Assembly (NCBI GenBank): GCA_964499705.1
Contig: CAZCME010000016.1
Location: forward strand, 1-64,000
Direction of reading: 5' to 3'
Length of the DNA: 64,000 bases
From: an uncultured bacterium
GTDB lineage: Bacteria > UBA8481
Below, piece by piece: positions 82 through 56,595 of the stretch. Each line of letters opens with the position of its first letter. Position 1 is the first letter of the stretch. The notes below the pieces were generated by a model. It had not been told where the DNA came from and ran no database searches. It saw only the letters and a program-made list of their open reading frames with translations. The position numbers were made by a program, and so were the translations under genes.

Positions 82-133
82 GTCGAATTACGCGGAGGCG
101 CCCGTGGCTTTCTCGGGGTTGGAATCGTCATGC

Positions 134-610
134 ATGGCTCATGAAATTCGCCTGCGGTCCCAACGGACGCGAGGAGCCACGATCATCGAATTGATCGTGG
201 CGGTCATCATCCTGGGGGTGGGGCTTCTCCCTCTCGTGCTGGCCTTGAACAAGATCTACACGAACACGTATTCGTTGGGAACGCGGGGTGAAGCTCAGTT
301 GCTTGCGGCTGAAAAGATCGACGAATTGAAATCGCTTGGGTATCTGAAAATCGCGACGGATTCCCTGGCGGGCAGCGACAGCGTCGTCTATCAGGACGAT
401 GCCGTGGTCATGAAACCGTTTTCAAGATCCACGGAGATCAGCTACATCAAGTACAACGGCGGCACCAGCTTCGTGGACGCGGATTCAGCCGATGTTCCGA
501 CGGACTATATTCAATTGAAGACGGAGGTCAGGTGGGCGACGGATACCGCGGTCTATTCGCGGAACCTGACCGCATTACTGACGAAGGAGGGCGCGCTTGA
601 GCTTGAATAG
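134..610 (+). CDS. Type IV minor pilin, PilV-like
   Basis: Class III signal peptide RG|ATIIELIVAVIILGVGL with Glu5; start moved to ATG 134. Confidence 0.85.
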   Translation: MAHEIRLRSQRTRGATIIELIVAVIILGVGLLPLVLALNKIYTNTYSLGTRGEAQLLAAEKIDELKSLGYLKIATDSLAGSDSVVYQDDAVVMKPFSRSTEISYIKYNGGTSFVDADSADVPTDYIQLKTEVRWATDTAVYSRNLTALLTKEGALELE

Positions 611-1271
611 CCTGAGAACGAGTTCCGGCTCCGCGTTCTCGCTTGTGGAACTCCTCGTGGTCTCCATGATCGTCGGCCTCGTGCTCCTGGCGCTCGGACG
701 ATTCTTCCAGAATTACCTCACCGGCTACCAGGAGACGCAGGCGCGACTGAGGCTGCAGCGGGACATGCGCGCGCTGACCTATTGGATCCGGAAGGATCTG
801 ACGGCCCTTGTGAAGCGCCAGAATAATTTCGAGCTCAGCAGGGATTCCGGCCACTTCTCGTTCCTGGCAGCCGACGATCCGATGAATTCGACCGACATGT
901 CCGATAATTCATCGGATAACGGGCTCGATTCCGTCACTTACACATGTTCCGCGAACAAGATCACGAGAAAGTGGGATCCCCTGGGAGGCGGTGCGATCAC
1001 GCAGAGCGAGATCACTCTGGAGAGCATCGAGCCGGCTCGGGGCGACACATACGCGATCGAGATCACGCTGTACGATATCCATGATTCGCCTCTGGCCAGG
1101 AGCAACTTCGACGGCACCTTCGGCAATTATGAATGCGACAGTTCCATAAAGACCGTCGACCTGGAAATCATCTTCAGCAAGAAGCCCGTCGGTCCCTTCT
1201 CCCAGCGCCGGCCGCGCATTATGGAGCGCGGCCAGGTGAAGGCTGTGGCGATGTACAAGAGGGCTGGTTGA
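597..1271 (+). CDS. Type IV minor pilin, PilW-like
   Basis: Prepilin motif SA|FSLVELLVVSMIVGLVL; overlaps the upstream gene. Confidence 0.85.
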   Translation: MSLNSLRTSSGSAFSLVELLVVSMIVGLVLLALGRFFQNYLTGYQETQARLRLQRDMRALTYWIRKDLTALVKRQNNFELSRDSGHFSFLAADDPMNSTDMSDNSSDNGLDSVTYTCSANKITRKWDPLGGGAITQSEITLESIEPARGDTYAIEITLYDIHDSPLARSNFDGTFGNYECDSSIKTVDLEIIFSKKPVGPFSQRRPRIMERGQVKAVAMYKRAG

Positions 1272-1273
1272 TC

Positions 1274-1627
1274 ATGAAAAAGCGACCTGATCCGCATCTG
1301 CGAGCGAGAAAAGGGAATGAGGGGCAGGCGCTCATCATCGCCCTCATCCTTCTCATCATCGCCGCGATCCTCGTATTGGGAAATGTCTATTTCTTCCAGC
1401 AGAGCTCGCGCATGCATGTGGCGCATGGCAAGATCGTCCAGGAGCGATATCTCGCCGAAGCCGGGCTCCAGATGACCTTGCAGAGGCTCAATTCGGACAG
1501 GGAGTTCTCGGAGCGGATCCAGAATCTTACGTCCGGCCAGGCGAATCCGTTCGATACCGCGGCTGAGCCTCGCGCGATCGACTGGGGAGGCGGAACGATC
1601 ACGATCACGATCGAACCGTTCGACTGA
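1274..1627 (+). CDS. Short PilX-like pilin (N-terminal part only)
   Basis: EG|QALIIALILLII without Glu5, plus YLAEAGL motif; 117 aa; ATG 1274 lies just after the upstream stop. Confidence 0.8.
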   Translation: MKKRPDPHLRARKGNEGQALIIALILLIIAAILVLGNVYFFQQSSRMHVAHGKIVQERYLAEAGLQMTLQRLNSDREFSERIQNLTSGQANPFDTAAEPRAIDWGGGTITITIEPFD

Positions 1628-4600
1628 TGAGGAAGAGCCTTGTCAGAGCCTGTCTGCTGGCCGTCATCATGCTGCCCGCCGCCGATGCCTTCGCGCCGTA
1701 TTGGATTTCGACATGGATCGGCATCCAGGCGCCGGGATTGGATCCGATGGTCGTTGATGGTGATAAGGGAGACTGGCTGGCGGGTATTCCGGACATCGCC
1801 AATACGGCCGCCCTGATCAGCGACGGAACGGACACCGAATGGGTCTGGCGGGATAAGATCGGGGATGTGCGGAGCGATTTCGATACCGCGGAGAGTTCCA
1901 GAAACTGGGACATCAAGCAGATTCGCATCAAGGCCGACGCGACGAATCTCTATTTTCTCGTTGAAGTGGACGAGATGTCGGCAGGTTACCAGAACGCGTT
2001 CCAGTTCAACGTGGCGATCGATACGGAATTTTCCGCGAATGTCAACGGAGGCACCGCCGGATTCAACTGGTTCGGCGATGACGCGGGCACGACCATGGGA
2101 TCGCCCTTGCAGAAATCCGAAATCAATCTCGCCATGGATAATGATGTAACCTGCAAAATGTGGATGTTTTACGACCAGTCTTATGGTCAACCCTGGAAAC
2201 AGCTCACGTGGGCGAGCGGAAACAAGGTCTGGATCGACGACTCCGATAATCTCATGGAAGCCTGTGTCAAATGGAGCGAACTGGGATTTGCATCCGTTCC
2301 CGCCCGCCTGCGTCTCACGATGGGTGTGGCGCGGAAGCCCTGGGACAATTCCGATCCCAATAACATCGACAAGACAACCGATCTGACCGGCTCCGACATG
2401 CTCGATGTCGTCTCGTTCGGCGCCAGCAGCGCCACGGATGAATGGCAGGACGATCTCAACGATGCCGTGGTGACCGCATACGTGGATCTCGCCTTCGATG
2501 CGACGGGAAAGCCGACAAGCACCCTGATACCCTCCGCGCCGGTCAATTTAAAGGCTTACGATGAGCAATTCGGCGCCTGGTGCACGAGCGGCGAAACGGT
2601 CTACACCAATAATCCCCTGATCGCCTGGGATGCCGTGTCGCCGGGCGTCGACCTGGGCGAATCCGTGATCGGCTATTACGTCCAGATCTGCACGTCGGCT
2701 ACCGTGGGAGGCACCGGCTTCTTCTATTCCGACAGCCGTCAGCAGAATCGCAATCCCACCGGAGGCGGTCCCGACAACCGCGTCGTCTTTACAAATACGA
2801 GCGCCAATGACTACCGCTCTCAACCCTGGTGGGGTAGCTCCGACAGCCTGTCGGGTGTTCCGAATGCGGACACAAGCTATGCGCAGAAAAGGATTTTCCA
2901 TTTTGGTCAGACGTATTACATAAGGGTCTGGGCGCGAACGCGCCGGGGAATTCTCGGCAATCCGTCTTCCACGTTCGTCCTGCCCATCGATTACCCGGTC
3001 TGGCATGACCCTTACGTCTTCATATGGGACAGCGGTACGATGCGCGGCAACCGCGATCCGATGAAGGACGCGGATGTCAACTTCATGGTCGGAGTGTACG
3101 ACACGGCGCCGGGCGATCCTGGAGACCAGTATTATACGAATGCTTCGACGAATCAGCGCTCGTCCAACGAAATATTGAATATCATTCTCCATATCAGAAA
3201 GAAGAATTCCGCCGACGATTGGACAACGAACGTCGGCAAGGTCATCCTCGGCAACGAGTGGAAGGGCAGTACCGGAGATATCGCCTGGTACACGCCGTCC
3301 GTTCCGCATAATACCTATCTGACGCCCGATCCCACAAATGTGGAAACCTTCACGGTCTGGCGAACCGGCGGATCCGTGGATTTTAACAAGAACTGGTGGG
3401 ACGGAGTGGATGAGAATAATTTCGTCAACCTCGGTAACAACGGCGGGGGAAACACATTCAAGCTGCAGGCCAATGTCGGCGATGTCATCGAGTACTTCTT
3501 CGAGATCAATAATCCGAATGAAGCTCCGGGCGGCTTCTATTCCATGAGCGAAGCGCCGCGCCGTTTTCTCCATGCCTACGACACATACGGCATCACCGGG
3601 CACCAGATGGGAACTTACGCCAACGCCAAGGGAAAGCCGTTCCGCTTCGTCGTCCAGCGGCGGGATCTGCCGGCGATCTGGCATAATCCCTTGAGTAACG
3701 AAGTGCCCCTGGATTCAGGATATATGATGCGTAATCCCGCCTGGCCGGACACTTCGCCGCAAGATGTTCGCATGCATGTGGGCGGAGTCGGCTGGGGAGG
3801 GTGGAACTTTCAGATGGTCTGGCGCAATGTGGATGCGGGCGGCGCGTGGAACACCGATAATTTCTTCTTCAACGGACTTCCCATCAGCGTCCAGACGGAT
3901 ACGCCCCGCAAGCTCTATTACTACCGGCATAATTTCAGCTACACCGGAGGCCAGATCGAGTACTACTTCAAGCTGAACGATAACAGCGCCTACATCTTCG
4001 CCAACGGCGTGACGGATAATCAGAATGACGTCTACGATAACTCCATCGGAAACGAAACCCGGGCGGCAGTACCTTTCCGCTTCCCCTATTCCAATCGCGT
4101 GAGGGTCGTATCAACGGCGTCCGTGGGAAAAGACAGCCATACCATAGTCGCGGTTCTGCATCTGCGCTCGCCGCAGCTCGACGCCATCGATGAGAATGCC
4201 ATCGGAGTCAGCGAGATATTGAACATGAGCACATGCAGCGGCGCCGTAACCGGAAATATCTTCTCGAACGCATTTCCTTCCGTGCATTATGCGCGCTCGG
4301 ATACGCATGGAATCGCGGATCCCAGGAAGATCCGGGGCAAGTCCTACCAGGCCATTCTCTCCGGTTCCATCTCCGATGTCCTCGCCACGGTCGTGACAGG
4401 GCTGCAGAAGGCGTTCTTCGGCCCCATCTTCCCCAACGACTACGTCGTGACCGATTCCACGAGGTGGAACACGGGCAGCGATGCCTACGAAAACGTCCCC
4501 ATCCTGACATATGACGAAGTCTTCAAGGATGCCATCGAAAAGACGGAACCGCCCGGCACAACTTTCAACGACGCCAAGCCGATCATCGGTGTCACTCTTG

Positions 4601-4983
4601 TCCGGGGCGACGCCATTGTTTCGTCGTTATCGGCCGTCACCAAGGGAGCGCTCATCTGCACGGGCACGATCACGATTCCCGCCTCGGCCGTCATCAACGC
4701 GACAAGGCTGGATCTCTTCTCTCTCGGAGGACAGTTGAACATCCATGGCCGCCTCGAAATCGAAACGGGCATTCTCTTCTCCAATGACGCCATCACTCTG
4801 GACTCGACCGCCGTCGTGAAGCTGAAGAATCTGGGCAGCGTGGTCTCCCAGTCCCTGACGCTGGATTCCGGTTCGCAGCTCCAGGTCAAGCACCTCCCCG
4901 ACGTGGCCTTCCTGGAGTCCAAGGAATCCGTTCTCTCCCGCGCCACCCGCTGGGTCATCTCCACCCTTCGCGAAACCCGCTAA
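1627..4983 (+). CDS. Large secreted protein: DOMON-like sugar-binding, Ig/FN3-like domains, PilX-like C-terminus
   Basis: Signal peptide ending ADA; VDGDKGDW, DIKQIRIKADATNLYF, VAIDT; two WHxP...IEY(F/Y)F repeats; TGATG overlap with the upstream gene. Confidence 0.75.
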   Translation: MRKSLVRACLLAVIMLPAADAFAPYWISTWIGIQAPGLDPMVVDGDKGDWLAGIPDIANTAALISDGTDTEWVWRDKIGDVRSDFDTAESSRNWDIKQIRIKADATNLYFLVEVDEMSAGYQNAFQFNVAIDTEFSANVNGGTAGFNWFGDDAGTTMGSPLQKSEINLAMDNDVTCKMWMFYDQSYGQPWKQLTWASGNKVWIDDSDNLMEACVKWSELGFASVPARLRLTMGVARKPWDNSDPNNIDKTTDLTGSDMLDVVSFGASSATDEWQDDLNDAVVTAYVDLAFDATGKPTSTLIPSAPVNLKAYDEQFGAWCTSGETVYTNNPLIAWDAVSPGVDLGESVIGYYVQICTSATVGGTGFFYSDSRQQNRNPTGGGPDNRVVFTNTSANDYRSQPWWGSSDSLSGVPNADTSYAQKRIFHFGQTYYIRVWARTRRGILGNPSSTFVLPIDYPVWHDPYVFIWDSGTMRGNRDPMKDADVNFMVGVYDTAPGDPGDQYYTNASTNQRSSNEILNIILHIRKKNSADDWTTNVGKVILGNEWKGSTGDIAWYTPSVPHNTYLTPDPTNVETFTVWRTGGSVDFNKNWWDGVDENNFVNLGNNGGGNTFKLQANVGDVIEYFFEINNPNEAPGGFYSMSEAPRRFLHAYDTYGITGHQMGTYANAKGKPFRFVVQRRDLPAIWHNPLSNEVPLDSGYMMRNPAWPDTSPQDVRMHVGGVGWGGWNFQMVWRNVDAGGAWNTDNFFFNGLPISVQTDTPRKLYYYRHNFSYTGGQIEYYFKLNDNSAYIFANGVTDNQNDVYDNSIGNETRAAVPFRFPYSNRVRVVSTASVGKDSHTIVAVLHLRSPQLDAIDENAIGVSEILNMSTCSGAVTGNIFSNAFPSVHYARSDTHGIADPRKIRGKSYQAILSGSISDVLATVVTGLQKAFFGPIFPNDYVVTDSTRWNTGSDAYENVPILTYDEVFKDAIEKTEPPGTTFNDAKPIIGVTLVRGDAIVSSLSAVTKGALICTGTITIPASAVINATRLDLFSLGGQLNIHGRLEIETGILFSNDAITLDSTAVVKLKNLGSVVSQSLTLDSGSQLQVKHLPDVAFLESKESVLSRATRWVISTLRETR

Positions 4984-5053
4984 TAATACGGGGACAGTAT
5001 ACCATTTTCCGTGAATAAATTCACGGAAAATGGTATACTGTCCCCGTATTATT
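4982..5053. repeat. Perfect 35-bp inverted repeat (REP-like)
   Basis: Arms 4982-5016 and 5019-5053 are exact reverse complements with a 2-nt loop. Confidence 0.9.
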
Positions 5054-5109
5054 CTGTTCCCGCATTATTCCCATGCTATACTGAGATTGTCGGTATCAGG
5101 GGAGAGCAC

Positions 5110-5874
5110 ATGGCTGGGCGAATCGATGCGATCGATATCATTCTTCGGGCTACGGAAATCGTTACACAGGCGCCTGTCGATCCCACCGAGTTTGTCCGGG
5201 CGGATCTGGCCGGGATTGCCGAAGCGGAACAGCCGACGCTGCCGGCTGCTGCCCCGACTTCAACTCTCGCTGCGACGGCTGCGCCTGTGGAAGCCGGTGC
5301 TCTTTCACCCGGGCCGGCTCCTCCGGCAGCCTTGCCGGGCGCCGTGGCGGCTGAATTCGGCATAGGGCGCAATCTCGATGTCACTTCCCGCGGGCCATCG
5401 GTTGTCTCTGCCGCGCAGGACGCGGAAGCACGCGCGCGTGCCCTTGCCGCGGTTGAAGCTCGGGCTCTTCCTGAGCAGGTTCCAGCCATTGTTTCTCCTC
5501 GGGAACCGCCTCTCCCGCCGGTCGTTCCGGCGCCGGTGGAAGAACCGCTCTTAAGCGTTGTCGTTCCCGAATCCGGTCCGGAAGCGCAAGCGGCTCGCTC
5601 CATTCGCCTCTCGTCTCTCGCCGGCCTGGCGATGAACGATCCGCGCGGGCCGGTTCCGATCGGAGCTTCGCTTTCACCTCTGATCGCCCCGATCGTCGTC
5701 GAACCGCTGGGCGCCGTTGCCCCGGCCGCCGCGTGGACATTCGGCACGGGCCGGCGCGAGGAGAGGGCTCCCGGCGCTCTGGAGCGCGGCTTCCCCCCAG
5801 CGGAAGCGGGGCCAACGCCGCCTGCAGGGGCTCCTGCCATTGCGTCCGGTGGAGTCGTCAACGTTCAGGCATAG
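5110..5874 (+). CDS. Pro/Ala-rich hypothetical protein
   Basis: GGGGAGAG SD before ATG 5110; TGcTATACT extended -10 at about 5074-5082. Confidence 0.6.
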   Translation: MAGRIDAIDIILRATEIVTQAPVDPTEFVRADLAGIAEAEQPTLPAAAPTSTLAATAAPVEAGALSPGPAPPAALPGAVAAEFGIGRNLDVTSRGPSVVSAAQDAEARARALAAVEARALPEQVPAIVSPREPPLPPVVPAPVEEPLLSVVVPESGPEAQAARSIRLSSLAGLAMNDPRGPVPIGASLSPLIAPIVVEPLGAVAPAAAWTFGTGRREERAPGALERGFPPAEAGPTPPAGAPAIASGGVVNVQA

Positions 5875-5931
5875 GAGCCCGACCCGGCAATATTCTCTGA
5901 ACTTCCTTCGGAAATGGCCGATATCACTTCT

Positions 5932-6561
5932 ATGGCCGATACGATACCATCCTACATCAAAGACTGGACGCGCGAACTTCTGGGCGCTCGAGGATTCCTC
6001 AAGGCATGGAACGACATCGCTCAGAAGAAGAAGCTGGATCTGATTGTCGAAACGATCGCCGCGGAAAAACGCCCGCTCGATGAGATACATAACGCCTTTC
6101 TGCGCGCGCGAGGCAGCAAGTCCCCTCTGGACGATGTCATCAATCAACTTCAGAAACCGGAGCGATGGGATATCGGAAAAGCCGTTCAGGCGGCGAAACT
6201 CGCATCGAAACATGCCGACACATCCAGGCCGGCGGAAATCCGGTCGAAGCCCGCTGAAACATTCAGCGCGGAGCTTCAGCAGGAGCTATCACGCATTCGA
6301 GCTGAAGCCAATATGTCGCGCATAAGGCTTGTCGACATGGAGCAACTTGTCCGCGCGCTTACGGAGCGCGCTGTTCTCGACGCGACGCGGATCAAGGGAC
6401 TGGAGACCGCCCTGATGGCTCTGGCTGAAAACGCGGGAGTATCCGCGGAAGCCGAACGGGTCTATTTCAAAGCCACGGCGCAATTTCTTGATTCCAGAAT
6501 GCCCCTCCTGTATGAAAGCCGCTCCCGGAATTATTCCTCGATCGCGGGCGAACGAACCTGA
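5932..6561 (+). CDS. Hypothetical helical protein
   Basis: Protein-like ORF; start ATG 5932 (alternative 5914) follows a sigma28-like motif. Confidence 0.65.
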   Translation: MADTIPSYIKDWTRELLGARGFLKAWNDIAQKKKLDLIVETIAAEKRPLDEIHNAFLRARGSKSPLDDVINQLQKPERWDIGKAVQAAKLASKHADTSRPAEIRSKPAETFSAELQQELSRIRAEANMSRIRLVDMEQLVRALTERAVLDATRIKGLETALMALAENAGVSAEAERVYFKATAQFLDSRMPLLYESRSRNYSSIAGERT

Positions 6562-8345
6562 ACCGGTCGGAGCTGATATAGAAATGCATCGGCCGCCGTG
6601 TCGGCCGCGACGATCTCGAGAGGCGCCAGCATCCGGTGAAGTACCGCGAAGTCATTTTCGCATGCGGGACCCGGCACGCGCCGGTGGGAAATCAACCTCT
6701 GCAGGATCGTTCTGTTATAAAGCAGGTGCGTATATCCGCGTTGTTGCAGCGCGGCCATGAGCTGTTCGGGCGAATGAGAGGAATGAGCTAGATCGAGGAC
6801 CCGGCTCGGTTCCCAGAAACCGTCATAATGGTTCCTGCGGTGCAGCGGAAAGAGCTCCGCTTCACCAACGGCGATGATAAACGCGTTCGCCGGCAATTTT
6901 CCGTCCGCCTCCGTCTGTAGACCATAGGTGTTCAACCATGGTTTCATGTATTCGCCGACGGAAATCCGGCCCGCGTGAAGATCCAGAAAGTGGTTTTCGT
7001 TTTCAAGAATGCGGAGCTGCATCATGAGACCGAGCAGCGCGGACGCGGAAAGCACCGCGATCGCGCCCCGTCGACCGGAAGCGGCTCGCGCGGCGCCTGT
7101 CGAGCCGAGGATCGCGAGAAGAGGGAGGAGAAATCTCGCCTGACCTCGTCCCGCCGCCAGCCACAGCAGCCATCCGATGATTCCCACGGTTTGCGCTCTT
7201 CGAAATGCCGAGCCCTTTTCCCGCGTGCCGGGCAGGCAAATGTTTGCGACAAGGAGCATAAGCAGGATTCCGTAGGGACCATCGGTGCCGTCCGCGGTGA
7301 TATGTGAGAAGAAGGATTCCAAGAATCTCCGGACCGCGAAGAGTCCGAACTCCAGCGCCTCACGCGGAGGAAGAAAGATCAGCATCTTCTGGACAGGCGC
7401 GCCTGGATCGAACGGCGAACCCGCAAGGATCACATTGCGGACGAACCAGTAGAGGGGAAAGAGAAAGGCTGATCCGAGCAGCGGCACGATACTTCCCGCG
7501 GGCTTGCGCCAGACCGCGCATCCGAGGATGGGAAGAACGGCGAACGCGGATGTGGGCTTTACGGCAAGCGCTGCCCCCACCATCAATCCGATCCGGACGG
7601 GGTGTCGACTCGTGCAGAGAGCATGATAGCTCCAGGCACAGAGTGAAGCGGCGAGGAGATCGTTCTTCGTCAGAACGGACAAGATGGCCGCCAGCGGCGA
7701 TGTGGCCATCGCCGCCGCCGCCAAAAGGCCGGCTCTCCGACCTGCAATATGGTGGGCGATCGCGTATGCGCCGGTGATGAGAGTCTGAAAGATGACAAAG
7801 ACGAGCAGGTTGGAACTGATGCCGCTTCGGTCCAGTGCCAGAAGCGGGGCCAGCGCCAGCTCGAACTGCTGGTAAAAAAGCGAGTAACCACGAAGATCAT
7901 CCGGAATGATGCTCCCGCGGATGAGATATTGATCCGGGAGCGCGAGATGGTACGCCAGGGCATCCATACCTGAAGGGGGAGCGAGCGCTCCCAGGAACGT
8001 CCATGCCATGGAAAGAGAGATGATACCCGACAGGAGGAGGTCTGCTCTATCGCTCTCCATGAGCAGTCGCCTCAGATGCCGGATCGCTTCACTTCCGTTC
8101 CTGCTCAGGGATTTTGCGCCGATGAACGGGACGATCAGGAGGGGAAGCGCCGCCGCCGGCCTGCTGAGAAACCCCGCTGTGCCGAGCAGGATCGTCCAGC
8201 AGGAGAGGAGAAGCAGTCCGGAGAGAAAGCGCTCCGCGAGGGTCGAAGACGAACGGAAGGTGTGATCCAGCCAGTCACCCAGCACGACAGCCGTGGCGAT
8301 GGCGAGCAGAGCAGTCGCTCCACCCATCCAGAGATCGTTCTGCAT
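6531..8345 (-). CDS. Polytopic GT-C-type membrane glycosyltransferase
   Basis: Many TM segments; PPSGMDALAYHL, KNDL, GAALAVK, YWFVRN...GSP and QARFLLP motifs. Confidence 0.75.
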   Translation of the reverse strand: MQNDLWMGGATALLAIATAVVLGDWLDHTFRSSSTLAERFLSGLLLLSCWTILLGTAGFLSRPAAALPLLIVPFIGAKSLSRNGSEAIRHLRRLLMESDRADLLLSGIISLSMAWTFLGALAPPSGMDALAYHLALPDQYLIRGSIIPDDLRGYSLFYQQFELALAPLLALDRSGISSNLLVFVIFQTLITGAYAIAHHIAGRRAGLLAAAAMATSPLAAILSVLTKNDLLAASLCAWSYHALCTSRHPVRIGLMVGAALAVKPTSAFAVLPILGCAVWRKPAGSIVPLLGSAFLFPLYWFVRNVILAGSPFDPGAPVQKMLIFLPPREALEFGLFAVRRFLESFFSHITADGTDGPYGILLMLLVANICLPGTREKGSAFRRAQTVGIIGWLLWLAAGRGQARFLLPLLAILGSTGAARAASGRRGAIAVLSASALLGLMMQLRILENENHFLDLHAGRISVGEYMKPWLNTYGLQTEADGKLPANAFIIAVGEAELFPLHRRNHYDGFWEPSRVLDLAHSSHSPEQLMAALQQRGYTHLLYNRTILQRLISHRRVPGPACENDFAVLHRMLAPLEIVAADTAADAFLYQLRPVQVRSPAIEE

Positions 8346-8591: not shown

Positions 8592-8719
8592 GTCGCACCT
8601 CCCCTTAATCGCCTGTACCTATTTCTATGCCTTCGCGCCCGCTTTCTCAAGGGGCAACTGTCACAGGTATCACGCTCCTCTTTTGATCCCAGCCGTTCCC
8701 GATGTATGATCGCATCTCC

Positions 8720-10384
8720 ATGGCATACGCGCTTGCGGCTCTGACCGCGGTATTTTTCGGGCTGAACGCGTACCCGGCCAGAACCTTGGGAAGGCGTGGT
8801 CGCCGGGCTCCGGAGGTCGCGTGGATGAACTTCACGATTTCGGCTCCGATCCTTTTCATGGTGGCTCTTGCATGGGGAAACTGGCGGTTTCAGCCCGGCT
8901 TTTTCTCCGGCCTTGCCGCCGGTGTCGCGGGCAACATGATCGCCTACACGCTTTATTTCCGCGCGATTCGCGACACGGATCTATCCATCGCGCTTCCCCT
9001 TGTCTCGCTATCTCCGCTTTTCATGCTCTTCACTTCCCGATGGATGCTCGGTGAAGAAATGACTTCGACGGGCACGGCGGGTGTCGTATGCGTCGCGATC
9101 GGCGCCTATCTTCTCGGATGCGCCCGAGATCGTTCCGATCTTGCGGCTCCGTTCCGGGCGCTCTGGCGGGACAAGGGAGCGCGATCCGCTCTCGCAGTTT
9201 CGGTCGTCTGGTCGATAACCTCCAACATCGACAAATACTGCGTGCGGCTTTCCGACCCCTTCACCTATTCAGCGATCTTCGCGCTCTGCAGTTCGGTGAT
9301 CTATTTACCTCTCCTGTATTGCGTCAAACCGTCGCGGGATGCACCCGCGCTTCGTCATGATGCCGGCATCGCGGTGGCGCTCGGAATCTCCTCGGCGCTC
9401 ATGGTCCTGTGCCAGATGAGCGCGATTCTTCTGATTCCCGTTCCCTATGTCATCGCCATCAAGCGGGCGGGAATGCTCATCGGGATCGCCGACGCGGTGT
9501 ATCGCCGCGAATCGGGCCTGGCATGGAGATTGGCGGGCAGTTTGCTGATCCTGGCGGGCATCGGACTGATCGTGGCAGGGCCGGTCCCGGGATCAGCTTC
9601 GCCATCAACGACATCGGGAGTTCATGGTGGCGGCGAGCCACCGTCGCAGCCTCCACAGACAAATTCCGCGGGGGTTGCGTCGCGCGGAAAGTTGTTGCGC
9701 GGACAATGGGAAACTCATGACCTCGACAGCAAGGATTACGTGATTCATCAGAATGAATGGAGTGGCGATTTCGGCCAGCAAATGGAAGTTGAGGGGAGCA
9801 TCTTCAGAATCGTCGCGGGCGACTTTAATATGCCCGTCGCCGGACCTCCCGCGACATACCCGTCCATCTTCAAGGGGTGTCACTGGGGAAACTGCACGAG
9901 TAACAGCGGCATGCCGATCCAGGTCGGACGCATCGGTTCCGCCACGAGCAGTTGGCGCGCCACGCCGGCTCCGGGCGCCTGGAATATGGCCTACGACATC
10001 TGGTTCAACACAACTCCGACCCCGCGCGGAAAGGCACAGCCGGACCGGGCGGAGCTGATGATCTGGCTCGCCGCGAGCGGAGGAGTGAAACCCGCGGGCA
10101 CACGGGTCGGGACCGTGATCCTGTCCGGTATGAACTGGGATATCTGGCTCTACACGGGATTCCAATGGAAACTGGTTTCATATTCGGCCTCGGTACCGGT
10201 CACGGAGGTTTCGAATCTTGACATCAAGGCGTTTGCAGACGACATGGTGAGCCGAGGCTATCTGAACAGGACCGATTACATGATCGCGATCGAGGCCGGC
10301 TTCGAGATCTGGAACGGAGGCATCGGGCTCTCCAGCGACACATTCGTCGCCGCTGTCCAACCTACCGCGGAGACGGGCAAATAG
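8720..10384 (+). CDS. EamA/DMT transporter fused to a GH12 endoglucanase domain
   Basis: About 10 TM EamA region (SLSPLF...LGE), P/S/T linker, then GH12 motifs YPSIFKGCHWGNC, WNMAYDIWF, ELMIWL, IEAGFEIW; alternative start 8702. Confidence 0.85.
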   Translation: MAYALAALTAVFFGLNAYPARTLGRRGRRAPEVAWMNFTISAPILFMVALAWGNWRFQPGFFSGLAAGVAGNMIAYTLYFRAIRDTDLSIALPLVSLSPLFMLFTSRWMLGEEMTSTGTAGVVCVAIGAYLLGCARDRSDLAAPFRALWRDKGARSALAVSVVWSITSNIDKYCVRLSDPFTYSAIFALCSSVIYLPLLYCVKPSRDAPALRHDAGIAVALGISSALMVLCQMSAILLIPVPYVIAIKRAGMLIGIADAVYRRESGLAWRLAGSLLILAGIGLIVAGPVPGSASPSTTSGVHGGGEPPSQPPQTNSAGVASRGKLLRGQWETHDLDSKDYVIHQNEWSGDFGQQMEVEGSIFRIVAGDFNMPVAGPPATYPSIFKGCHWGNCTSNSGMPIQVGRIGSATSSWRATPAPGAWNMAYDIWFNTTPTPRGKAQPDRAELMIWLAASGGVKPAGTRVGTVILSGMNWDIWLYTGFQWKLVSYSASVPVTEVSNLDIKAFADDMVSRGYLNRTDYMIAIEAGFEIWNGGIGLSSDTFVAAVQPTAETGK

Positions 10385-43721: not shown

Positions 43722-46025
43722 ATGACGCCGCCGGAAACGATGCTCTCCGGGGAGATCCACTATTTCCGCATCCCGCGGGAGGATTGGCCGGACAGGCTCC
43801 GGACCGCGGACCGCACGGGATTGAACACCGTCTCCACTTATGTTCCGTGGATGGTGCATGAACCGGTGGAGGGGCGATTCGATTTTTCGCTCGTGGATGA
43901 CTGGATCCGGGCCGTCGCCGATGCCGGGCTGAAGTTGTTCATCCGGGTCGGTCCGGTGTCCAATGCGGAGCTCATTGGTGAAGGGCTCCCGGGATGGCTC
44001 GCCGGGGACCGCGAAGCGATGCTGCGCGGGGGACCGGACGATCCGTCGGAAGCAACCTTTGGTCCCTCGTATCTCTCGCCGCGATTCCAATCCGCCGTCG
44101 CGGCCTGGCATGACGCGCTTCTTCCGCGTGTCGCTGCCGCACAGGTGACGCGAGGCGGTCCTATAACCGCGGTTCAGCTCTGCAACGAAATCGGCATGAT
44201 TCCCTGGCTCGCGCATCGGCCCGATCGCGCCTCCCACGTCGAGGCGTTCTACCGCGAATTTCTCCGGGCGCGATACGGCGAGATCGGGAGATTGAACGAC
44301 GCGTACGAAACGCAGTACGGTTCATTCGCTGAAATCTCCCAGCCGCCCAATATCCCCACAACCACGAACCGCCTGCAATTGCTCGATCGGGCCCGGTTCT
44401 TCAGGGCCTACTTCGCCCGATACTTCCGGACGCTCGCCGATCATGCCGCGCGTCACGGCATCGAAGTTCCTCTCGTCGCCAACATTCCGATGTTCTGGGA
44501 TTACGACACCCGGGGCCGCGGCCACCAGGCTCCGCTGACCGTTTCCTTCTTCGCGGATTTTGCCGCCGCCGTGCCCGGAGTTTCCCTTGGAGGCGCCTAC
44601 CAGATGCGCCGGCTCGATCACGAGAACTCCCACGATATCGCGATCGCCACGGAAATGGTTCGCGCGTGTCTCAGGAGGAACATTCCCGCCGATCGTGCGG
44701 GCATGCCCCTCTGCGTCGAGCTCCAGACCGGCATCCTCTCCGACCGTCCCCGCCTCTATCCTTCCGACGTGGACATGAACCTCCGCCTCTCCCTCGGCCA
44801 CGGGCTTGCGGGCGTCAACGGCTACATGTTCGCGGGCGGGAGTAACGCGGATGGCATGGGGTGGTTCGGGCATTATCACGAGTGGCAGGCGCCCGTGGCC
44901 GCCGACGGTTCCACGCGACCTCACATCAAGCCGATCGAAACGCTGGGTTCGTTTCTCCGTGGTTTCGGTACGCAGTATTCCTCCAGCTCGAAAACATTCT
45001 CCACCGCGATCGGTTTCCACGCGCCGGACTGGATGACGGAGTATATCGACGGGTCGGAATCGGAGGAGATCAAGTCCGTCCGCGAAGCGTATGCCTTCGA
45101 CGGAGCATGGCGACTCCTGGATATCCTCGGGCGCCCTTTTTCTGTCGTGGACCTGGAGACCGATTCGACGTGGCCGGCATCGATCTGGCTCTTCACGTGG
45201 GACCGGATGGATGCTCCGCTTCAACAGCGGCTCGCCGATTACGTTTTGTCCGGCGGTCGGCTGGCCATCGGCCCGCGCCTTCCATCGCGCGATTTCCGCG
45301 GCCGCGCCTGCCGCATCCTGGCCGACTCGCTCGGCCTGGAAACAACCCGGCGGCCCCGGGAGAATGTCATGATCGATGGAGCGGATCACACCAGCGTGGA
45401 ACACACTAGTGTGGCGCACACTTGTGTGGAGCGCTTCGTCGGTTCCATGGTCGATACGGTCAAGGCTCGGCCCGGAGACGAAATCCTCGCGTCGACGCGC
45501 GATGGATCCGTCGCCGCGCTTCTCGGCTCGCGCGGTTCGGGTCGCGTCCTCTACACGGGATTCGGAATCGAGGACAAGTTCCTGTACTGGAGAGAGATCT
45601 TTTCCCGGTGGTGCGACATGCTCGGCATTCCCGAGCTCATCCGGATCCGCCCCTTCGGCGAGATCGGCGCGCAAGGACGCGAGGGGGAGGATGGCTCCTT
45701 CCTGACGGTCTCGAATCCGCACGATCTTCCCGTCCGGGCAACCGTCGAGATTCCGCATCGCGGATATGGACCGCTCGACCTGGCCCTGCCGCCCCGTGGT
45801 GCCTGGATCCTGCCGATCGATGTCGCGCTCGGGAACGGGTGGAGGCTACTTCGCGCCAACGCGGAAGCGCATGCCGCGAATTTTACGGATCATGGGCTTG
45901 AACTGGAATTCCGCGCGCCCGCGCTGGGCGAAACGTTCGAAGCGGAAGTGTCGCGTTCGAACGGCAGCCGCATCATCCTGACGGCGGATGCCTCCGCGGG
46001 CATCGCGCGCGCGCGGATCGACTGA
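43722..46025 (+). CDS. GH35-type glycoside hydrolase, cytoplasmic
   Basis: SGEIHYFRIP, GLNTVSTYVPW, VQLCNEIG, VELQTG; no signal peptide. Confidence 0.85.
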   Translation: MTPPETMLSGEIHYFRIPREDWPDRLRTADRTGLNTVSTYVPWMVHEPVEGRFDFSLVDDWIRAVADAGLKLFIRVGPVSNAELIGEGLPGWLAGDREAMLRGGPDDPSEATFGPSYLSPRFQSAVAAWHDALLPRVAAAQVTRGGPITAVQLCNEIGMIPWLAHRPDRASHVEAFYREFLRARYGEIGRLNDAYETQYGSFAEISQPPNIPTTTNRLQLLDRARFFRAYFARYFRTLADHAARHGIEVPLVANIPMFWDYDTRGRGHQAPLTVSFFADFAAAVPGVSLGGAYQMRRLDHENSHDIAIATEMVRACLRRNIPADRAGMPLCVELQTGILSDRPRLYPSDVDMNLRLSLGHGLAGVNGYMFAGGSNADGMGWFGHYHEWQAPVAADGSTRPHIKPIETLGSFLRGFGTQYSSSSKTFSTAIGFHAPDWMTEYIDGSESEEIKSVREAYAFDGAWRLLDILGRPFSVVDLETDSTWPASIWLFTWDRMDAPLQQRLADYVLSGGRLAIGPRLPSRDFRGRACRILADSLGLETTRRPRENVMIDGADHTSVEHTSVAHTCVERFVGSMVDTVKARPGDEILASTRDGSVAALLGSRGSGRVLYTGFGIEDKFLYWREIFSRWCDMLGIPELIRIRPFGEIGAQGREGEDGSFLTVSNPHDLPVRATVEIPHRGYGPLDLALPPRGAWILPIDVALGNGWRLLRANAEAHAANFTDHGLELEFRAPALGETFEAEVSRSNGSRIILTADASAGIARARID

Positions 46026-47104
46026 TGGGAGAATCACTGACGATCCGCACGATCGCGGAAGCGGCCGGCGTCTCGCCGTCCGCCGTTTCCAAGGCGCTCA
46101 ACTCCCGTCCCGGAATTTCTCCCGCGATGCGCCTGCGCGTCCAACAGATCGCCCAGAATCTCGGCTACGCTCCGTACGTCGCCTCCCGCCGTAAGGGAAT
46201 GCTCTCCCCGGGCGGCTGCCACGTCGCCGTTCTCTTCGGCCCGGTCGGGCCGCACATCGTCCGGGAGGTCCAGTTCGGCATCGATGTCGCGCTCCGTTCG
46301 TCCGGGTTCTACGAGCTCCGATGCAGCCTGATGCCGGAGGATCCGGATCGCGAGGAAGTGAAGCGCGGCTTTCTCCGCAAGGTGGAGGAAGACCCGGCCA
46401 TCGCGGGTCTTCTCGCCTGCTGCGTCTCCATCGAAGATTCGGTCGCCACGTCGCTCGGTCGCCGCCGCATTCCGATCGTGCATCTCGACGGCGATCGATC
46501 GATCAAACGTGGACATGTGATGATCGATCATGTGGACGCGTCGAACCAGGCGGCCACGGCGCTTCTGAAGCTCGGACGCAGGAAAGTGGGTTACATCGGG
46601 CCGCGCGCGGAGATCGCGTGGGTCTGGCGGGAGCGATATCGGGGCGTGGAGGAGACCGTGCGCCGCGCGAAAGCCGTCTTCGAGTTCGAGGAGGAATCGA
46701 TCTGCGACATGGTGCAGGCCGCCTTTGCCACGAGGCGCCTCATGGAACGCGCGCCGCAAACGGACGCGCTCATCTATTCGAGCGATCTCCAGGCGCTCGG
46801 GGGCATGAGAATGCTTCGCGAGATGGGCATCGATGTGCCCGGCCGGGTGGCGGTCATAGGTTTTGACGATTCGGATGTCTGCCGCGCCGTTTCCCCGATG
46901 GTCTCCTCCGTCCGCCAGCCGTTCCGGAGGATGGGGGAGACGGGAACGAGGATGCTTCTTCGGGCGATCGAGGGAAAATCCGGCGCCCTGAAGAAGACGG
47001 AGCTGCGGGCGAAGCTGGTGATGCGGAGCTCCTGTCTCGGGGATTCGCCCGGGGACAGGTGGCATCGGGACATGTCCCGCGAAGTGATGGTGCGGACGGC
47101 TTAG
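46025..47104 (+). CDS. LacI family transcriptional regulator
   Basis: TIRTIAEAAGVSPSAVSKALN HTH; VIGFDD, SSVRQP. Confidence 0.93.
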   Translation: MGESLTIRTIAEAAGVSPSAVSKALNSRPGISPAMRLRVQQIAQNLGYAPYVASRRKGMLSPGGCHVAVLFGPVGPHIVREVQFGIDVALRSSGFYELRCSLMPEDPDREEVKRGFLRKVEEDPAIAGLLACCVSIEDSVATSLGRRRIPIVHLDGDRSIKRGHVMIDHVDASNQAATALLKLGRRKVGYIGPRAEIAWVWRERYRGVEETVRRAKAVFEFEEESICDMVQAAFATRRLMERAPQTDALIYSSDLQALGGMRMLREMGIDVPGRVAVIGFDDSDVCRAVSPMVSSVRQPFRRMGETGTRMLLRAIEGKSGALKKTELRAKLVMRSSCLGDSPGDRWHRDMSREVMVRTA

Positions 47105-47113
47105 GAGGATGGT

Positions 47114-47961
47114 ATGACGGAAAAAATATCGCGATGCTGTGGGGACCGATCGGGACCCATATTCTGCGCGAAGTGCAGACCGGGATAGATCAGGCCTTGG
47201 CAGCTTCCGGATATCACGAACTGCGTTGCAATCTCGTGTATGATGCCGATCCCGCGGAACGCCAGGCGCGGTTTCTGAAGAAGATTCTGGATGACGATTC
47301 GGTGGCCGGGCTCCTCGCCGCCTTCGTCCTGATTTCGGAAACGGAAATGAAGAAGTTCGAGGCTCGCGGAAAACCGGTGGTGCTCCTGGACTGCGAACCC
47401 GCCCAGCACATCAGGGGATCCGTCAATGTCGACCACGCGTTTATCGCCACGGAGATCGTCAAGGCGATCGCGGCCCGCGGGCGGAAATCGATCGCCTACG
47501 TCGGCCCGGCTTCCGGCGAAGCATGGGTCTGGTCCCAGCGCCACGGCAGCTTGGCGCTGGCCGTGAAGGAGGAAGGATTGGAATTCGAGTTCGAGATGGA
47601 CACGAATTTCGAATCCGTTGGCGAAGGAGAATCGACGAGGCGCCTTCTGGATCGGCGCGGGGATATCGGAGCGATCGTCTACGCCAGCGACTTGCAGGCG
47701 CTGGGAGGCATGCGCGCGATCAAGGAACGCCGCAGAAAAATTCCGGACGACATCATCGTCATCGGTTTCGACGATTCCAACGCGTCGCGCTCTGTGATGC
47801 CGGCGTTGTCGACGGTACGGCAGCCGTTCATGGAAATGGGATCCGCCGCCGCCCGCATGCTGCTCGATGTCCTCGGGGGCAACAAGAGCGCGCTCCGGAA
47901 TATCAAGCTCGAATCGAAGCTGATTCTCCGCGACTCGTACGGAGCGACCGATATCAAGTGA
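47114..47961 (+). CDS. LacI-type effector-binding domain lacking HTH; start uncertain, possible frameshift
   Basis: Paralogue of the upstream core (GPIGTHILREVQ, SDLQALGGM, VIGFDD, STVRQP); SD-ATG at 47114 is out of frame; in-frame starts at 47059 (GTG) and 47134 (ATG). Confidence 0.75.
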
Positions 47962-50513
47962 AGAGAACCGTGCTTGTCCTTGCTCTTATCGGGACGCTGG
48001 CGGCCGTCCTGGCCGTCGCGCGTCACGTGATGCAGGGAGAAAGCTTCTTGCCCGCGCCGGGAAATTTCAGGACGTCCGGACCGTGGGAGAGCGGGCGCTT
48101 CAAGATGGGTATGGCCGGGAACCGGCCGATCTTCCTCGATCCGAACGGCAAGCCCTTCTATTCCATCGGGATGGTTTATGCCTACGATCCGGAAGCCGGT
48201 CCGTTTGCCGAGCTGACATGGGAGCGGGTGAAGTGGGATCTGGAGGCGATCAAGGCGCACGGCTTCAACACGCTGAATCTCTACGGCGACAAATACCTTC
48301 CCGATGTCCTGGTCTGGTGCGACCGGAATGGCATCGCCGTTGTCCTGCGCACCTCCTACACTGACGGCCTGGATCTCTCCTCCGATCGCCGCGAGTACCC
48401 GGATTTCATGGACAGGCGGCTCCGAGAATTCGCCGCGCAGCGCTACGACACGATCCTTGCACAGGCGACAGGACATCCCAGTCTCCTGGCGGTCGACATG
48501 GACCAGCGCTGGCTCTTTCCGCTCGACTGGTCCGGATCATTGCACTCCGGCGAACCGAAACTGGGACCGGCCGCCCTGGAATATTTCCCCGTCTGGCTTG
48601 AAGAACGCTTCCGCGATATTTCCGCGTTGAACAGCGCATGGGGGCGCTCGTATGCGTCGTTCGCGGATGCGCTCGGCGACCCCGACATCATCCGCGACGG
48701 GAAAATACTTCCGCTCGGAAAACATCCATGGCGGCTCGATGTCGTCGAATACACGCTCTGGACGATCGACGACTTTATTCGTGAACTCTCTTCCGCTCTG
48801 AAAAAGAAGGATCCGGGTCTTCTGCTGACGTGCACGACCGAACATCCCGAGGTGGCTCCGTTTCCCCTGACCCCGGCGAAGGCGGGCATCGATTTCATCG
48901 CTCCCGTTCACTACAACAAGAAGGAATGGTACGACCGCGACTGGATCGCCGCCGGCAAGGCGATCTACGAATCGCGCTGGCATTTCGACATGCAGGGGCT
49001 GCCGGTCTACATCGCGGAAACCGGATGGCGAACGACGCCGCTGGATCAGTGGCCGCGCGTGACCAACTATGCGTTCGCGCGCCCCGGAGACGAGAAGCAT
49101 CTCGCGGGAATGTACCTTCGCCAGAACGCGCTCTGGAACGCCATGCCCTGGATGGTGGGTTGGGCTCACTTCAAGATGTACGACAAGGTTTCGGAGGGCG
49201 ACTTCGGCTACCTGCGGGACAACCGGACCGAGAAACCCGTCTCCACGGCGGGACGCGCGACCAACGCGTTTCTTCAGGTCGCGTCGGATCTTCCTGCCGC
49301 CAACCGCGCGACGATTCTCTATCCGCGTTATGCGCTCGCGTCGGAAAAAGCGGGCATGCGCCAGCTCGCGACGCTTGCGTATTGCCTGGAGGAAGACGCT
49401 CTGTCCGGGCTGGAATCGCTGGCAACCGAAGCGGAATCCTATCTCGACGACGCGAACGCGATGATGAGATCGGCTTATGTCACCTCGAGCGTCCGGACAT
49501 TATCCGAACAATGGTATGCCTTCCGATTTGCTTCCGAGGTTCCCGAGGATCCCGGTATCGTGGTCCTGGCGGGAGATCCGCTGGAGAATCTCTCGCGGAC
49601 GGACCGGGATCAGCTGAAATCGCGGCGGACGGTTTCCTTTTCCCGCGCCGGAGTTCAGGACGAACGATGTCGCGCGACGGAGCCGTGGTTCCTGGAGATC
49701 GCCGGAGCACGGCCCGGATTGTCCGCATCGGAATCCTTCGCGATTCCCCTGGCCGGAATGCTGAATCATGACGCGGCCGGATCGCGCGGAAATTTCGACG
49801 GCGCGGGAGGCGCGTTCCAGGATGCCGCTCTGGCGACGGTGTCGTCTTACTCCGCGATGAAATTCTCCGCCGTCGAAAATGCGGCCGGGCTCGACAATAT
49901 CCAGTGCCTCGGGCAGACGCTCTCCCTGGATGGGAAATCCGGAATCAGCGAACTGCATGCCGTCGTGGCCGTTCATGGCGGGGACGTGGCCTTGCCGCTG
50001 GAACTCCTGTACGACGACGGCACGCGCGAGACGAAGTGGCTGGGAGTGGCCGCCCGGGACTGGTCATCCGCTCCTGATGGAGATCGCTTCCTTCGGGTAC
50101 GCGACATGCGTGGAGGCGCGCGCGTCATGACCCACCTTTCGACGACGGTTCATCCTCTCAGGAAATTGAAGAGCGTTCTTCTTCCCAACGATCCGGCGAT
50201 CCATATCTTCGCGCTCACGCTCGTCGCACGTTCCGAAGGGACCATGATCCCTGTTGCCGTGGACATGGGTGGAGTCCGGATCGAGGGCGTGACCGCATGG
50301 GCCGTATTCCTGCCCTCGGATGCCGTGCCCGCAGATCGGGTTCTCGCCCGATTCTCCGACGGCCGTCCCGCGATCATCCTGTCGGAGGATAAAATGCACG
50401 CGGCGTTTCTCTTTGATCTGCTGACGTGGAACGGCAGCAGGACGATGATCAGCCGCGATCTGAAATCCGTCGCGGAGATCGTTCGCCGCGTTCTGAAATC
50501 GGTGGAGTCATGA
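47958..50513 (+). CDS. Exported clan GH-A-like glycoside hydrolase
   Basis: N-terminal hydrophobic segment; HGFNTLNLY, WLEERFRDISALNSAWG, PVYIAETG. Confidence 0.7.
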   Translation: MKRTVLVLALIGTLAAVLAVARHVMQGESFLPAPGNFRTSGPWESGRFKMGMAGNRPIFLDPNGKPFYSIGMVYAYDPEAGPFAELTWERVKWDLEAIKAHGFNTLNLYGDKYLPDVLVWCDRNGIAVVLRTSYTDGLDLSSDRREYPDFMDRRLREFAAQRYDTILAQATGHPSLLAVDMDQRWLFPLDWSGSLHSGEPKLGPAALEYFPVWLEERFRDISALNSAWGRSYASFADALGDPDIIRDGKILPLGKHPWRLDVVEYTLWTIDDFIRELSSALKKKDPGLLLTCTTEHPEVAPFPLTPAKAGIDFIAPVHYNKKEWYDRDWIAAGKAIYESRWHFDMQGLPVYIAETGWRTTPLDQWPRVTNYAFARPGDEKHLAGMYLRQNALWNAMPWMVGWAHFKMYDKVSEGDFGYLRDNRTEKPVSTAGRATNAFLQVASDLPAANRATILYPRYALASEKAGMRQLATLAYCLEEDALSGLESLATEAESYLDDANAMMRSAYVTSSVRTLSEQWYAFRFASEVPEDPGIVVLAGDPLENLSRTDRDQLKSRRTVSFSRAGVQDERCRATEPWFLEIAGARPGLSASESFAIPLAGMLNHDAAGSRGNFDGAGGAFQDAALATVSSYSAMKFSAVENAAGLDNIQCLGQTLSLDGKSGISELHAVVAVHGGDVALPLELLYDDGTRETKWLGVAARDWSSAPDGDRFLRVRDMRGGARVMTHLSTTVHPLRKLKSVLLPNDPAIHIFALTLVARSEGTMIPVAVDMGGVRIEGVTAWAVFLPSDAVPADRVLARFSDGRPAIILSEDKMHAAFLFDLLTWNGSRTMISRDLKSVAEIVRRVLKSVES

Positions 50514-51700: not shown

Positions 51701-51745
51701 TTGAGGATTTCGGGAAGAAACGAAAATTGCGTGAGGAGGGGAACG

Positions 51746-52411
51746 ATGAAGAATTTCTGGATACCGGGCATTTTGGGAATGACGTTGATCTCGTGCGGAG
51801 GAAACGCGCCCGCGGCGGCCCCGCCGCCTGTCGCTCCGCCGGCGGCGGAAGCTCCGGCGCCCGCGGAGGAACCGGCGCTCGAAAAGGGAACGGTCACGAG
51901 CGCCGAGTCCGGAAAGATCATCGCCGACTTCGAGTCGATCGGTAAGCTCAACAACGTGGGAGGCGCCTACGACATGTGGGCGAGCGAGGCTCCGAAGGGC
52001 ATGGCGAGCGTGGAAGTCGTGCCGGAAGGTGAAGGCACGGGTTCCGCGCTCAAGATCACCTACGACATCTCGCGTCGAGAGGGCAGCAACGGCGCCTACT
52101 CCGGAATCTGGATGAACCTGGAAGGATTCGACGCGTCCACATCAAAAAACCTCGTGATGTCCGTCAAGGCGGCGAACGGCGCGGGACCGAAGTTCTTCGT
52201 GGAGCTGAAGTGCGGCGAGAATAACAAGTTTGTCGCGCGCGCCGAGGCCAGGAACATCGGATCGGCCTGGACGAAGATTGAAATTCCGCTGGTCGAGTTC
52301 AAGGAGATCACGGATTGGAAAAAGCTGACCCAGATGGCCATCGTCTTCGACCAGAATATTTCGAGCGTGGCGAAGGGCGCTTATTTCATCGACAACATTC
52401 GTTTTGAATAG
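51746..52411 (+). CDS. Lipoprotein with CBM11/CIA30-like carbohydrate-binding domain
   Basis: Lipobox LISC, Pro/Ala linker, IADFE, WTKIEIPL, YFIDNIRF. Confidence 0.75.
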   Translation: MKNFWIPGILGMTLISCGGNAPAAAPPPVAPPAAEAPAPAEEPALEKGTVTSAESGKIIADFESIGKLNNVGGAYDMWASEAPKGMASVEVVPEGEGTGSALKITYDISRREGSNGAYSGIWMNLEGFDASTSKNLVMSVKAANGAGPKFFVELKCGENNKFVARAEARNIGSAWTKIEIPLVEFKEITDWKKLTQMAIVFDQNISSVAKGAYFIDNIRFE

Positions 52412-52470
52412 GCAGCACGGGCGCTGGGGGGCGCCCGATTTTTCATCATGGCGGGAAAGAGGTTGAAGAC

Positions 52471-54615: not shown

Positions 54616-54657
54616 TTCGACTTTTCAACACCCTCCTTACCGGGGTATAATTTCAGC

Positions 54658-56595
<1,938 letters not shown>

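Follow-up and report, generated by a model that had tools for sequence, protein, structure and literature searches.

The window analysed here is the first 64 kb (64,000 nucleotides) of contig C16 (CAZCME010000016.1, assembly GCA_964499705.1) from an uncultured bacterium (UBA8481), whose metagenome-assembled genome (MAG) measures 4.67 Mb and is 96% complete; affiliation with Candidatus Hydrogenedentota is indicated by homologues. Near its start, a gene for a very short pilin-like protein is followed directly by a gene for a giant secreted protein. We propose that the pair consists of a PilK-class cap pilin and a tip adhesin that completes it in trans on a type IV filament, and we put the probability of this reading at about 0.68. 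Its basis by sequence is the gene order, the conserved split between the two genes, the signal peptide of the giant protein and the homology of its tail to one-piece TadG-like pseudopilins; from these and from structural models we infer the tip location, a licensing role in filament assembly and a carbohydrate ligand. An earlier reading of the same DNA (the original prediction) had interpreted the pair as a PilX made as two polypeptides, an interpretation that our in silico results support at the level of models. The features of the two genes are the following, pLDDT being the predicted local distance difference test score.

1274..1627, + strand: short gene of the PilX/GspK class (K subunit), 117 aa (GspK model match, 16 homologues, complex prediction)
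1589..1624, + strand: last strand of the short PilX, residues 106-117, GGTITITIEPFD, predicted acceptor edge (contacts at 106-117 in the complex model)
1625..1629, + strand: TGATG, in which the stop codon of the short PilX gene overlaps the start codon of the giant gene (stop TGA 1625-1627, ATG 1627-1629, 1-nt overlap)
1627..4983, + strand: giant secreted protein, 1118 aa, candidate tip adhesin (9 homologues)
1627..1689, + strand: putative Sec-type signal peptide, MRKSLVRACLLAVIMLPAADA, followed by the mature start FAPYW (read from the sequence, without a predictor)
1744..2526, + strand: N-terminal module, about residues 40-300, possibly CBM9/DOMON/Glucodextran_C-like (Atlas lead, paralogous modules)
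4075..4980, + strand: tail, residues 817-1118 (302 aa), akin to the C-terminal part of TadG-like pseudopilins (profile comparisons)
4090..4164, + strand: beta-hairpin, residues 822-846, SNRVRVVSTASVGKDSHTIVAVLHL, predicted to join the PilX sheet and to pack on its helix (complex prediction)
4534..4890, + strand: beta-helix or solenoid, about residues 970-1088, the only confidently modelled part (pLDDT 75-92)
4927..4980, + strand: conserved extreme C-terminus, residues 1101-1118, ...SRATRWVISTLRETR, candidate second donor element

The original prediction held that the PilX-like gene stops after 117 aa and is coupled to an 1118-aa gene with its own signal peptide; the coordinates of the open reading frames (ORFs), the TGATG overlap and the Sec-type N-terminus bear this out. 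Nine homologues of the giant protein were found in Candidatus Hydrogenedentota (42-55% identity, 1098-1471 aa), with conservation from end to end and a hydrophobic N-terminus in every case. The giant is present in four of the five genomes of the phylum set, counting the genome under study, and a search of genome contigs provided a fifth carrier (L015). All five carriers have the same order of genes, PilV-like, PilW-like, short PilX-like (109-139 aa) and giant, and in the relatives a T2SSE-type ATPase gene with an MshEN domain, then a T2SSF platform gene, lie upstream of the pseudopilin genes. This I-J-K-giant synteny spans family- and order-level relatives. In L015, which diverges most among the carriers, the short gene and the gene for the giant (1471 aa here) lie 100 nt apart, and this giant starts with a different signal peptide. 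A profile search with the short protein returned 16 homologues of 89-141 aa, ending ...(I/V)T(V/I)(V/T)IE(P/A)(Y/F)x, and the C-terminal ends of all 16 coincide within one residue at ...VIEPY(x). The Joint Genome Institute (JGI) names of the short homologues are PilX or PulK, and some of them are on contigs that match the giants' contigs in length, co-location being only presumed there.

Two frames that abut with a 1-nt overlap might also be the remains of a single long PilX-like gene broken by a frameshift, through an assembly error or in a pseudogene. This explanation, to which we give next to no weight, was rejected because the split recurs in all five carriers (once with the 100-nt spacer), because the 16 short homologues share their end, and because contigs cross positions 1620-1635 unchanged; in addition, the giant gene comes with a start codon and a signal peptide of its own. 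The junction is bridged by contigs of three runs from two studies, which span at least 31 bases to either side of it without a difference, and the contig of a fourth run extends just beyond the junction; one of the bridging runs may be the source of the assembly. No RNA run was present among the seven runs listed for this sequence.

The short protein is encoded third, behind I- and J-class pseudopilins (order V-W-X in 5/5 genomes). Gly17 is followed by a hydrophobic helix, QALIIALILLIIAAILVLG (motif G/QALIIALILL), without the Glu5 that the I and J subunits have; then come an amphipathic helix (ERYLAEAGLQ...) and only about two strands, the chain ending ...WGGGTITITIEPFD some 40 residues past the helix. 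A complete pilin beta-sheet is not contained in this one chain. The GspK model NF037980 (307 positions) matches it over model positions 2-92 only, with 30.3 bits against a cut-off of 130 (E 3e-7). Residues T110, V111, I113 and E114 of the last strand are invariant or nearly so in the alignment of the 16 homologues. Among 743 candidates, no longer, one-piece relative of the short PilX was found at E <= 0.01, which is weak evidence, and a search of its own genome gave no paralogue of either the short PilX or the giant tail. The best reading of this sequence is that the 117-aa protein is a minimal cap pseudopilin of the PilK/PilX/GspK class, reduced to a stub.

The tail of the giant protein was expected to run from a segment at about nucleotide 4096 to RWVISTLRETR, and both ends were located there, RVRVVSTASVGKDSHTIVAVL beginning at nt 4096 (residue 824). 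Identity among the giants is 0.51 over the whole protein, against peaks in the tail of 0.81 at residues 941-966 and 0.78 over the last 18 residues. R824, S829, H838 and A842, in the region of the hairpin, and T1107, W1109, R1115, E1116 and R1118, at the extreme C-terminus, are invariant in the alignment. A profile made from the last ~300 residues and searched against 1.84 billion representatives recovered three members of the giant's own family (P0008, P0010 and P0011, a 226-aa fragment); the only other matches were four proteins of 348-361 aa (E 4e-5 to 8e-4), which carry Tad, Tad_C and DUF7305 (PF23981) and are one-piece TadG-like pseudopilins. When the profiles were compared with hhalign, tail residues 46-268 aligned with residues 144-332 of the TadG-like proteins with a probability of 97.3 (E 1.7e-11). 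The local-mode probability was 97.2 with a 10-row tail alignment, and global mode gave 97.9, the tail being collinear with the TadG-like proteins from within Tad_C to their last residue. These profile comparisons relate the tail to the C-terminal beta-helix portion of TadG-like pseudopilins made in one piece. The proposal that the giant carries the missing C-terminal half of a PilX is supported by this, with the qualification that the one-piece relatives are of the TadG class and not of the Pfam PilX_N class.

Other searches with the tail and its partner were negative within their scope. The Pfam model of DUF7305 had no match in the tail at E <= 1, and none in a search of the own genome, where the control matched nowhere either. 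The giant has no Tad or TadE match (PF13400, PF07811), its N-terminus being a signal peptide, and no similarity between the short PilX and the N-terminal profile of the TadG-like proteins was detectable (probability 1%). A sequence search of the PDB with the tail and short-PilX profiles gave chance-level rows only (the row for chimallin, at E 0.01, reflects a short helix). Nothing in the PDB matched the tail model at E <= 0.001 in Foldseek, the weak hits being bactofilin and ice-binding-protein solenoids only. A metagenome contig scan with the giant alignment yielded 88 pattern matches, 0 of them confirmed. Literature searches found nothing related on DUF7305, PF23981 or DUF4900 and, among the titles listed, nothing specific on Hydrogenedentota pili. 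Modelled alone with AlphaFold2 (AF2), the tail reached a mean pLDDT of 52.3, with values below 50 for tail residues 1-142 and 273-302; this poor folding outside the beta-helix fits segments that would need a partner.

The assembly of the two chains was modelled with tail residues 817-1118 (10 rows) and short PilX residues 14-117 (16 rows), each with its own shallow alignment. The complex scored 0.65, 0.61 and 0.60 (median 0.61), compared with 0.00 for all three controls; at least 92% of the contacts were common to the runs, and the pLDDT of the partner was at least 70. The confident interface brings giant residues 822-846, 1108, 1109, 1111 and 1116 against PilX residues 56-73, 79-85, 99 and 106-117. 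All the lowest-error pairs (1.1-1.6 A expected error) involve giant residues 825-844, and those between strands are 829:111, 827:113, 831:109 and 832:108 (giant:PilX). Since the residue-number sum is constant across these pairs, the pairing is read as antiparallel, RVRVVSTAS of the giant (825-832) being predicted to lie along the last PilX strand, TITITIE (108-114). Residues 838-846 are placed on the PilX helix, 838-844 contacting helix residues 61-69. The predicted interface includes several invariant columns: S829, H838, A842, W1109 and E1116 in the giant, and R58, A61, G64, L72, N73 and E114 in the short PilX. The extreme C-terminus of the giant also reaches the predicted interface, through residues 1108, 1109, 1111 and 1116, the best-defined pairing being made by 825-832 instead. 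The idea that the two polypeptides reassemble by strand complementation is thereby supported in the model, with a hairpin beside the last PilX strand. Contrary outcomes envisaged with the original prediction, namely a tail devoid of pilin-like fold or interface, homologues devoid of pilin neighbours, or a frameshift fusing the two ORFs, were not encountered, and each computational check proposed along with it turned out favourably.

These results suggest the following mechanism. The locus would be the tip (priming) module of a type IV filament, with minor pseudopilins of the I, J and K classes in the usual order. The K subunit would consist of a membrane helix and about two strands and, because it is reduced to these elements, would be unable to form a full pilin sheet alone. 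The giant, exported by Sec to the periplasm, would add the hairpin at the start of its 302-aa tail (822-846) to the free edge of the K sheet and cover the K helix with it, and its invariant extreme C-terminus would probably contribute too. About 800 aa of N-terminal binding modules would in this way be locked on the filament tip, and the giant would probably license filament assembly as PilC/PilY1 do. A more detailed version, which we advance tentatively and hold a little below even odds, is that of a naturally split capping pilin, in which the K fold is divided inside its sheet and the giant donates a hairpin and probably the closing strand. The pair would descend from a one-piece TadG/CpaL-like cap with a giant insert, split in two by fission, priming would wait for the adhesin, and the cargo would be held by complementation of a whole domain and not by a 10-residue tail.

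The head of the giant protein offers a lead to the ligand. No family matched the giant at E <= 1 in a Pfam/NCBIfam scan, PilY1 included, apart from a chance-level CBM_56 (E 0.98). The PilY1 beta-propeller PF05567 in particular had no Pfam match at that threshold, in agreement with the original prediction that no PilY1 propeller is recognisable in the giant; a search of the own genome for the PilY1 family gave no match, and its control matched nowhere either. By language-model features (Atlas), residues 40-300 match Glucodextran_C clusters (0.92, 171 shared features, 15/30 hits), with CBM9_1 at rank 13. The DOMON-like domain claimed earlier thus finds an echo in the Atlas match to Glucodextran_C/CBM9_1 and none in Pfam/NCBIfam. 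The motifs of the two Ig-like repeats also claimed are present, WHxP at residues 459 and 685 and IEY(F/Y)F at 621 and 777, but the two WHxP...IEYxF segments align no better than shuffles (score 46 vs 36 +/- 6, maximum 59), so that the repeats themselves were not borne out. The AF2 model of the whole giant is poor (mean pLDDT 46.6) and only its beta-helix is usable, so FN3, Ig or DOMON folds are not confirmable from it.

Two further giant ORFs of this genome contain a version of the N-terminal module (about residues 40-300/360; 26-27% identity), at C23:24801-25523 and C5:194478-195392, in open frames of 5865 aa and 3172 aa, respectively. The translation of the second locus also includes an alpha-amylase catalytic domain, which comes after the module; beta-helix, FN3 and Big_1 domains are present in the other module-bearing ORF. 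Within the window there are genes for GH12, GH35/42 and GH116 enzymes and for a polysaccharide deacetylase. Carbohydrate binding by the head of the giant is plausible from these sequence matches, as a lead. The head of the candidate adhesin is modular, because the 1471-aa giant of L015 (4762-9177, in a low-GC MAG) has ~400 extra N-terminal residues, including a Big_1 domain, before the shared architecture. Among the enzymes of the window, a glycoside hydrolase cluster occupies 43722-56595 (a GH35/GH42-like protein of 767 aa, a GH116 of 714 aa and a 996-aa ORF without Pfam match, then FtsH). At 8702-10384 (+), a 560-aa ORF fuses an N-terminal EamA-type transporter (two EamA stretches) to a C-terminal GH12 (E 6.5e-24), an unusual fusion of a permease-like membrane protein and an endoglucanase.

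The contig begins with about 100 nt of AT-rich non-coding DNA, then the four genes on the + strand, of which the first two encode the I and J subunits.

104..610, + strand: PilV/GspI-like minor pseudopilin (I subunit); N_methyl match E 3e-4, TIGR02523 PilV N-terminal match E 2e-5, below cut-off; likely start the ATG at 134, prepilin motif G/ATIIELIVAV with Glu at +5
597..1271, + strand: PilW/GspJ-like minor pseudopilin (J subunit), motif S/AFSLVELLVV

The N-terminus of the PilW/GspJ-like protein is matched weakly by PRK10557, GspJ TIGR01711 and N_methyl, each below cut-off, and both genes are kept at the corresponding position in relatives. The operon is probably broken by an assembly gap between contigs C41 and C16, because the own-genome orthologue of the ATPase (70% identity) is at the end of C41, together with the part of the platform gene that encodes its first 225 aa. 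A canonical full-length GspK is encoded elsewhere in the genome (184 bits, above cut-off) and GspE/PilB-type ATPases are found in about ten places; we conclude from these two observations that the locus is an additional, specialised filament system. About ten type IV filament motor genes is unusually many for a 4.7-Mb genome, and two of these GspE/PilB-type ATPase genes stand in tandem on contig C1 (287991-291398), a third fragment being located at 291830. Directly after the giant gene are a 287-aa Pro/Ala-rich ORF (5011-5874, +) and a 215-aa ORF (5914-6561, +), both without family match. In G002 (L008), the only relative whose downstream side was compared, neither is present at this position, and the giant is followed by a 465-aa ORF that matches no Pfam family. 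Close to the pilin operon, 6531-8345 (-) encodes a 604-aa multi-pass membrane protein with a PMT_2 domain (GT-C type glycosyltransferase).

The docking of tip proteins on K subunits has been described. PilC/PilY1 complete the sheet of PilK in trans with their last ~10 residues, whereas GspK and CpaL/TadG provide the closing strand in cis, often after a large insertion (Ellison et al., PMC13533445); the same docking was shown for PilC1/2 and PilX of Kingella (Yount et al., PMC13711793). Like PilC/PilY1 of Neisseria, Acinetobacter and Kingella (PMC13533445, PMC13711793), the giant is large, appears to be exported by Sec, is encoded directly after the I-J-K genes, and has a conserved C-terminal element predicted to complete the K sheet in trans. 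Unlike them, it has no beta-propeller, the K subunit is far shorter, and donation is predicted to come mainly from a hairpin that lies ~290 residues ahead of the C-terminus and not only from the last ~10 residues. MshQ, a protein of ~1200 aa of the Vibrio cholerae mannose-sensitive haemagglutinin (MSHA) pilus, is encoded after mshDOP and predicted to act like PilY1 (PMC13533445); the giant resembles it as a non-PilY1 protein, by size and gene position only, and the ATPase of the giant locus carries an MshEN domain, in keeping with the MSHA comparison. MshP, however, is described as missing only its final strand (PMC13533445), and the giant has no Pfam family. The same report suggests that further tip subunits may emerge from modelling.

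A third comparison is with K subunits of the cis type (CpaL of the TadG/CpaL class, GspK and the Thermus competence pilin; PMC13533445), to which the giant appears related by the similarity of its tail to the DUF7305 region, collinear to the C-terminus. The scheme of pilin head, large insert and return strand would be common to these cis caps and to the stub-giant pair. In contrast with TadG/CpaL, the chain is cut here, the head stub and the insert-plus-return elements being separate genes, the second of which brings a signal peptide of its own and 800 additional residues at the N-terminus. The original term of a PilY1-independent adhesin is apt inasmuch as there is no propeller; we prefer to call the giant a PilY1/PilC/MshQ analogue, since tip-adhesin docking on PilK/PilX by beta-strand addition is already published. 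The docking principle being known, what differs here is the adhesin family, the stub K, the predicted internal hairpin donor and the cis-cap tail homology. "Split cap pilin" is a fair description of the pair because these four elements, the adhesin family being undescribed and propeller-less, come together in it.

Several observations weigh against the proposal of a cap pilin completed in trans. The short PilX is under the cut-off of every pilin family model, and PilX_N (PF14341) matched neither it nor anything in a search of the own genome. The confidence of hhalign is high only for tail residues ~46-268 and near zero for the hairpin and the C-terminus, the segments predicted to contact the stub. 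The stub-tail interface is a predicted one, from a model built on shallow alignments. The calibration of the complex score (116 of 157 solved complexes attain this mark, as do 2 of 215 mismatched pairs) holds only roughly when own alignments are used, and a pass supports binding and does not amount to a demonstration of it. The poor fold of the lone tail may simply stem from its shallow alignment. In one genome of the phylum set (G004, 86% complete) the giant was not found at E <= 1e-20. The operon contains no major pilin, secretin or retraction ATPase, and a surface filament is assumed. Finally, the ligand specificity relies on the Atlas feature match and on the paralogue in the amylase-domain locus.

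Three other explanations are each less well supported than a cap pilin completed by the giant. It appears unlikely that the giant is a released substrate of an adjacent type II secretion-like system, a polysaccharide-binding or -processing protein not stably anchored at a tip. The operon does combine GspE/GspF-type genes with GspI/J/K-like pseudopilins and lacks a major pilin and PilT, some of the short proteins are named PulK by JGI, and the window and the genome are rich in glycoside hydrolases; however, the separate canonical GspK of 184 bits speaks against it, as do the homology of the tail to pseudopilin C-terminal regions and its predicted completion of the K sheet, which released payloads of type II secretion systems do not provide according to PMC13533445. 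We hold to be just as improbable a docking purely of the PilY1 type, in which the RWVISTL strand would be the sole donor, the hairpin contact an artefact, and the pair an ordinary PilX with a PilY1 analogue. This is the mode published for PilC/PilY1/MshQ (PMC13533445), and few parts of the giant are as well conserved as its last 18 residues (0.78 vs 0.51), which touch the partner in the model. Yet the lowest-error contacts are all at 825-844 and not at the C-terminus, and the ~40 post-helix residues of the short K are far below a pilin head missing one strand. Less probable still is that the giant has nothing to do with the filament and is a cell-surface protein whose gene only shares the transcript. 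Its lack of family annotation and the occurrence of its N-terminal module in giants of the same genome away from pilin genes would agree with such a neighbour, but not the strict synteny in family- and order-level relatives, the tail homology to pseudopilins, or a complex prediction that passed while the controls scored zero.

It was only in 2026 that the addition of a beta-strand in trans was established at pilus tips, for PilC/PilY1. The locus described here would extend it to a phylum without cultured pilus models, to an unannotated adhesin family, and to a more radical division of the cap, in which a hairpin is donated rather than one strand. It would also link, by detectable homology, the cis (TadG/CpaL, GspK) and trans (PilY1, MshQ) solutions, which bears on the evolution of tip adhesins. 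A 100-aa stub and a 300-aa tail form a compact, testable pair for fold complementation and for the mounting of cargo on filaments. If the head modules bind polysaccharide, the system would serve a glycan-degrading groundwater bacterium as a pilus-borne device for substrate capture.

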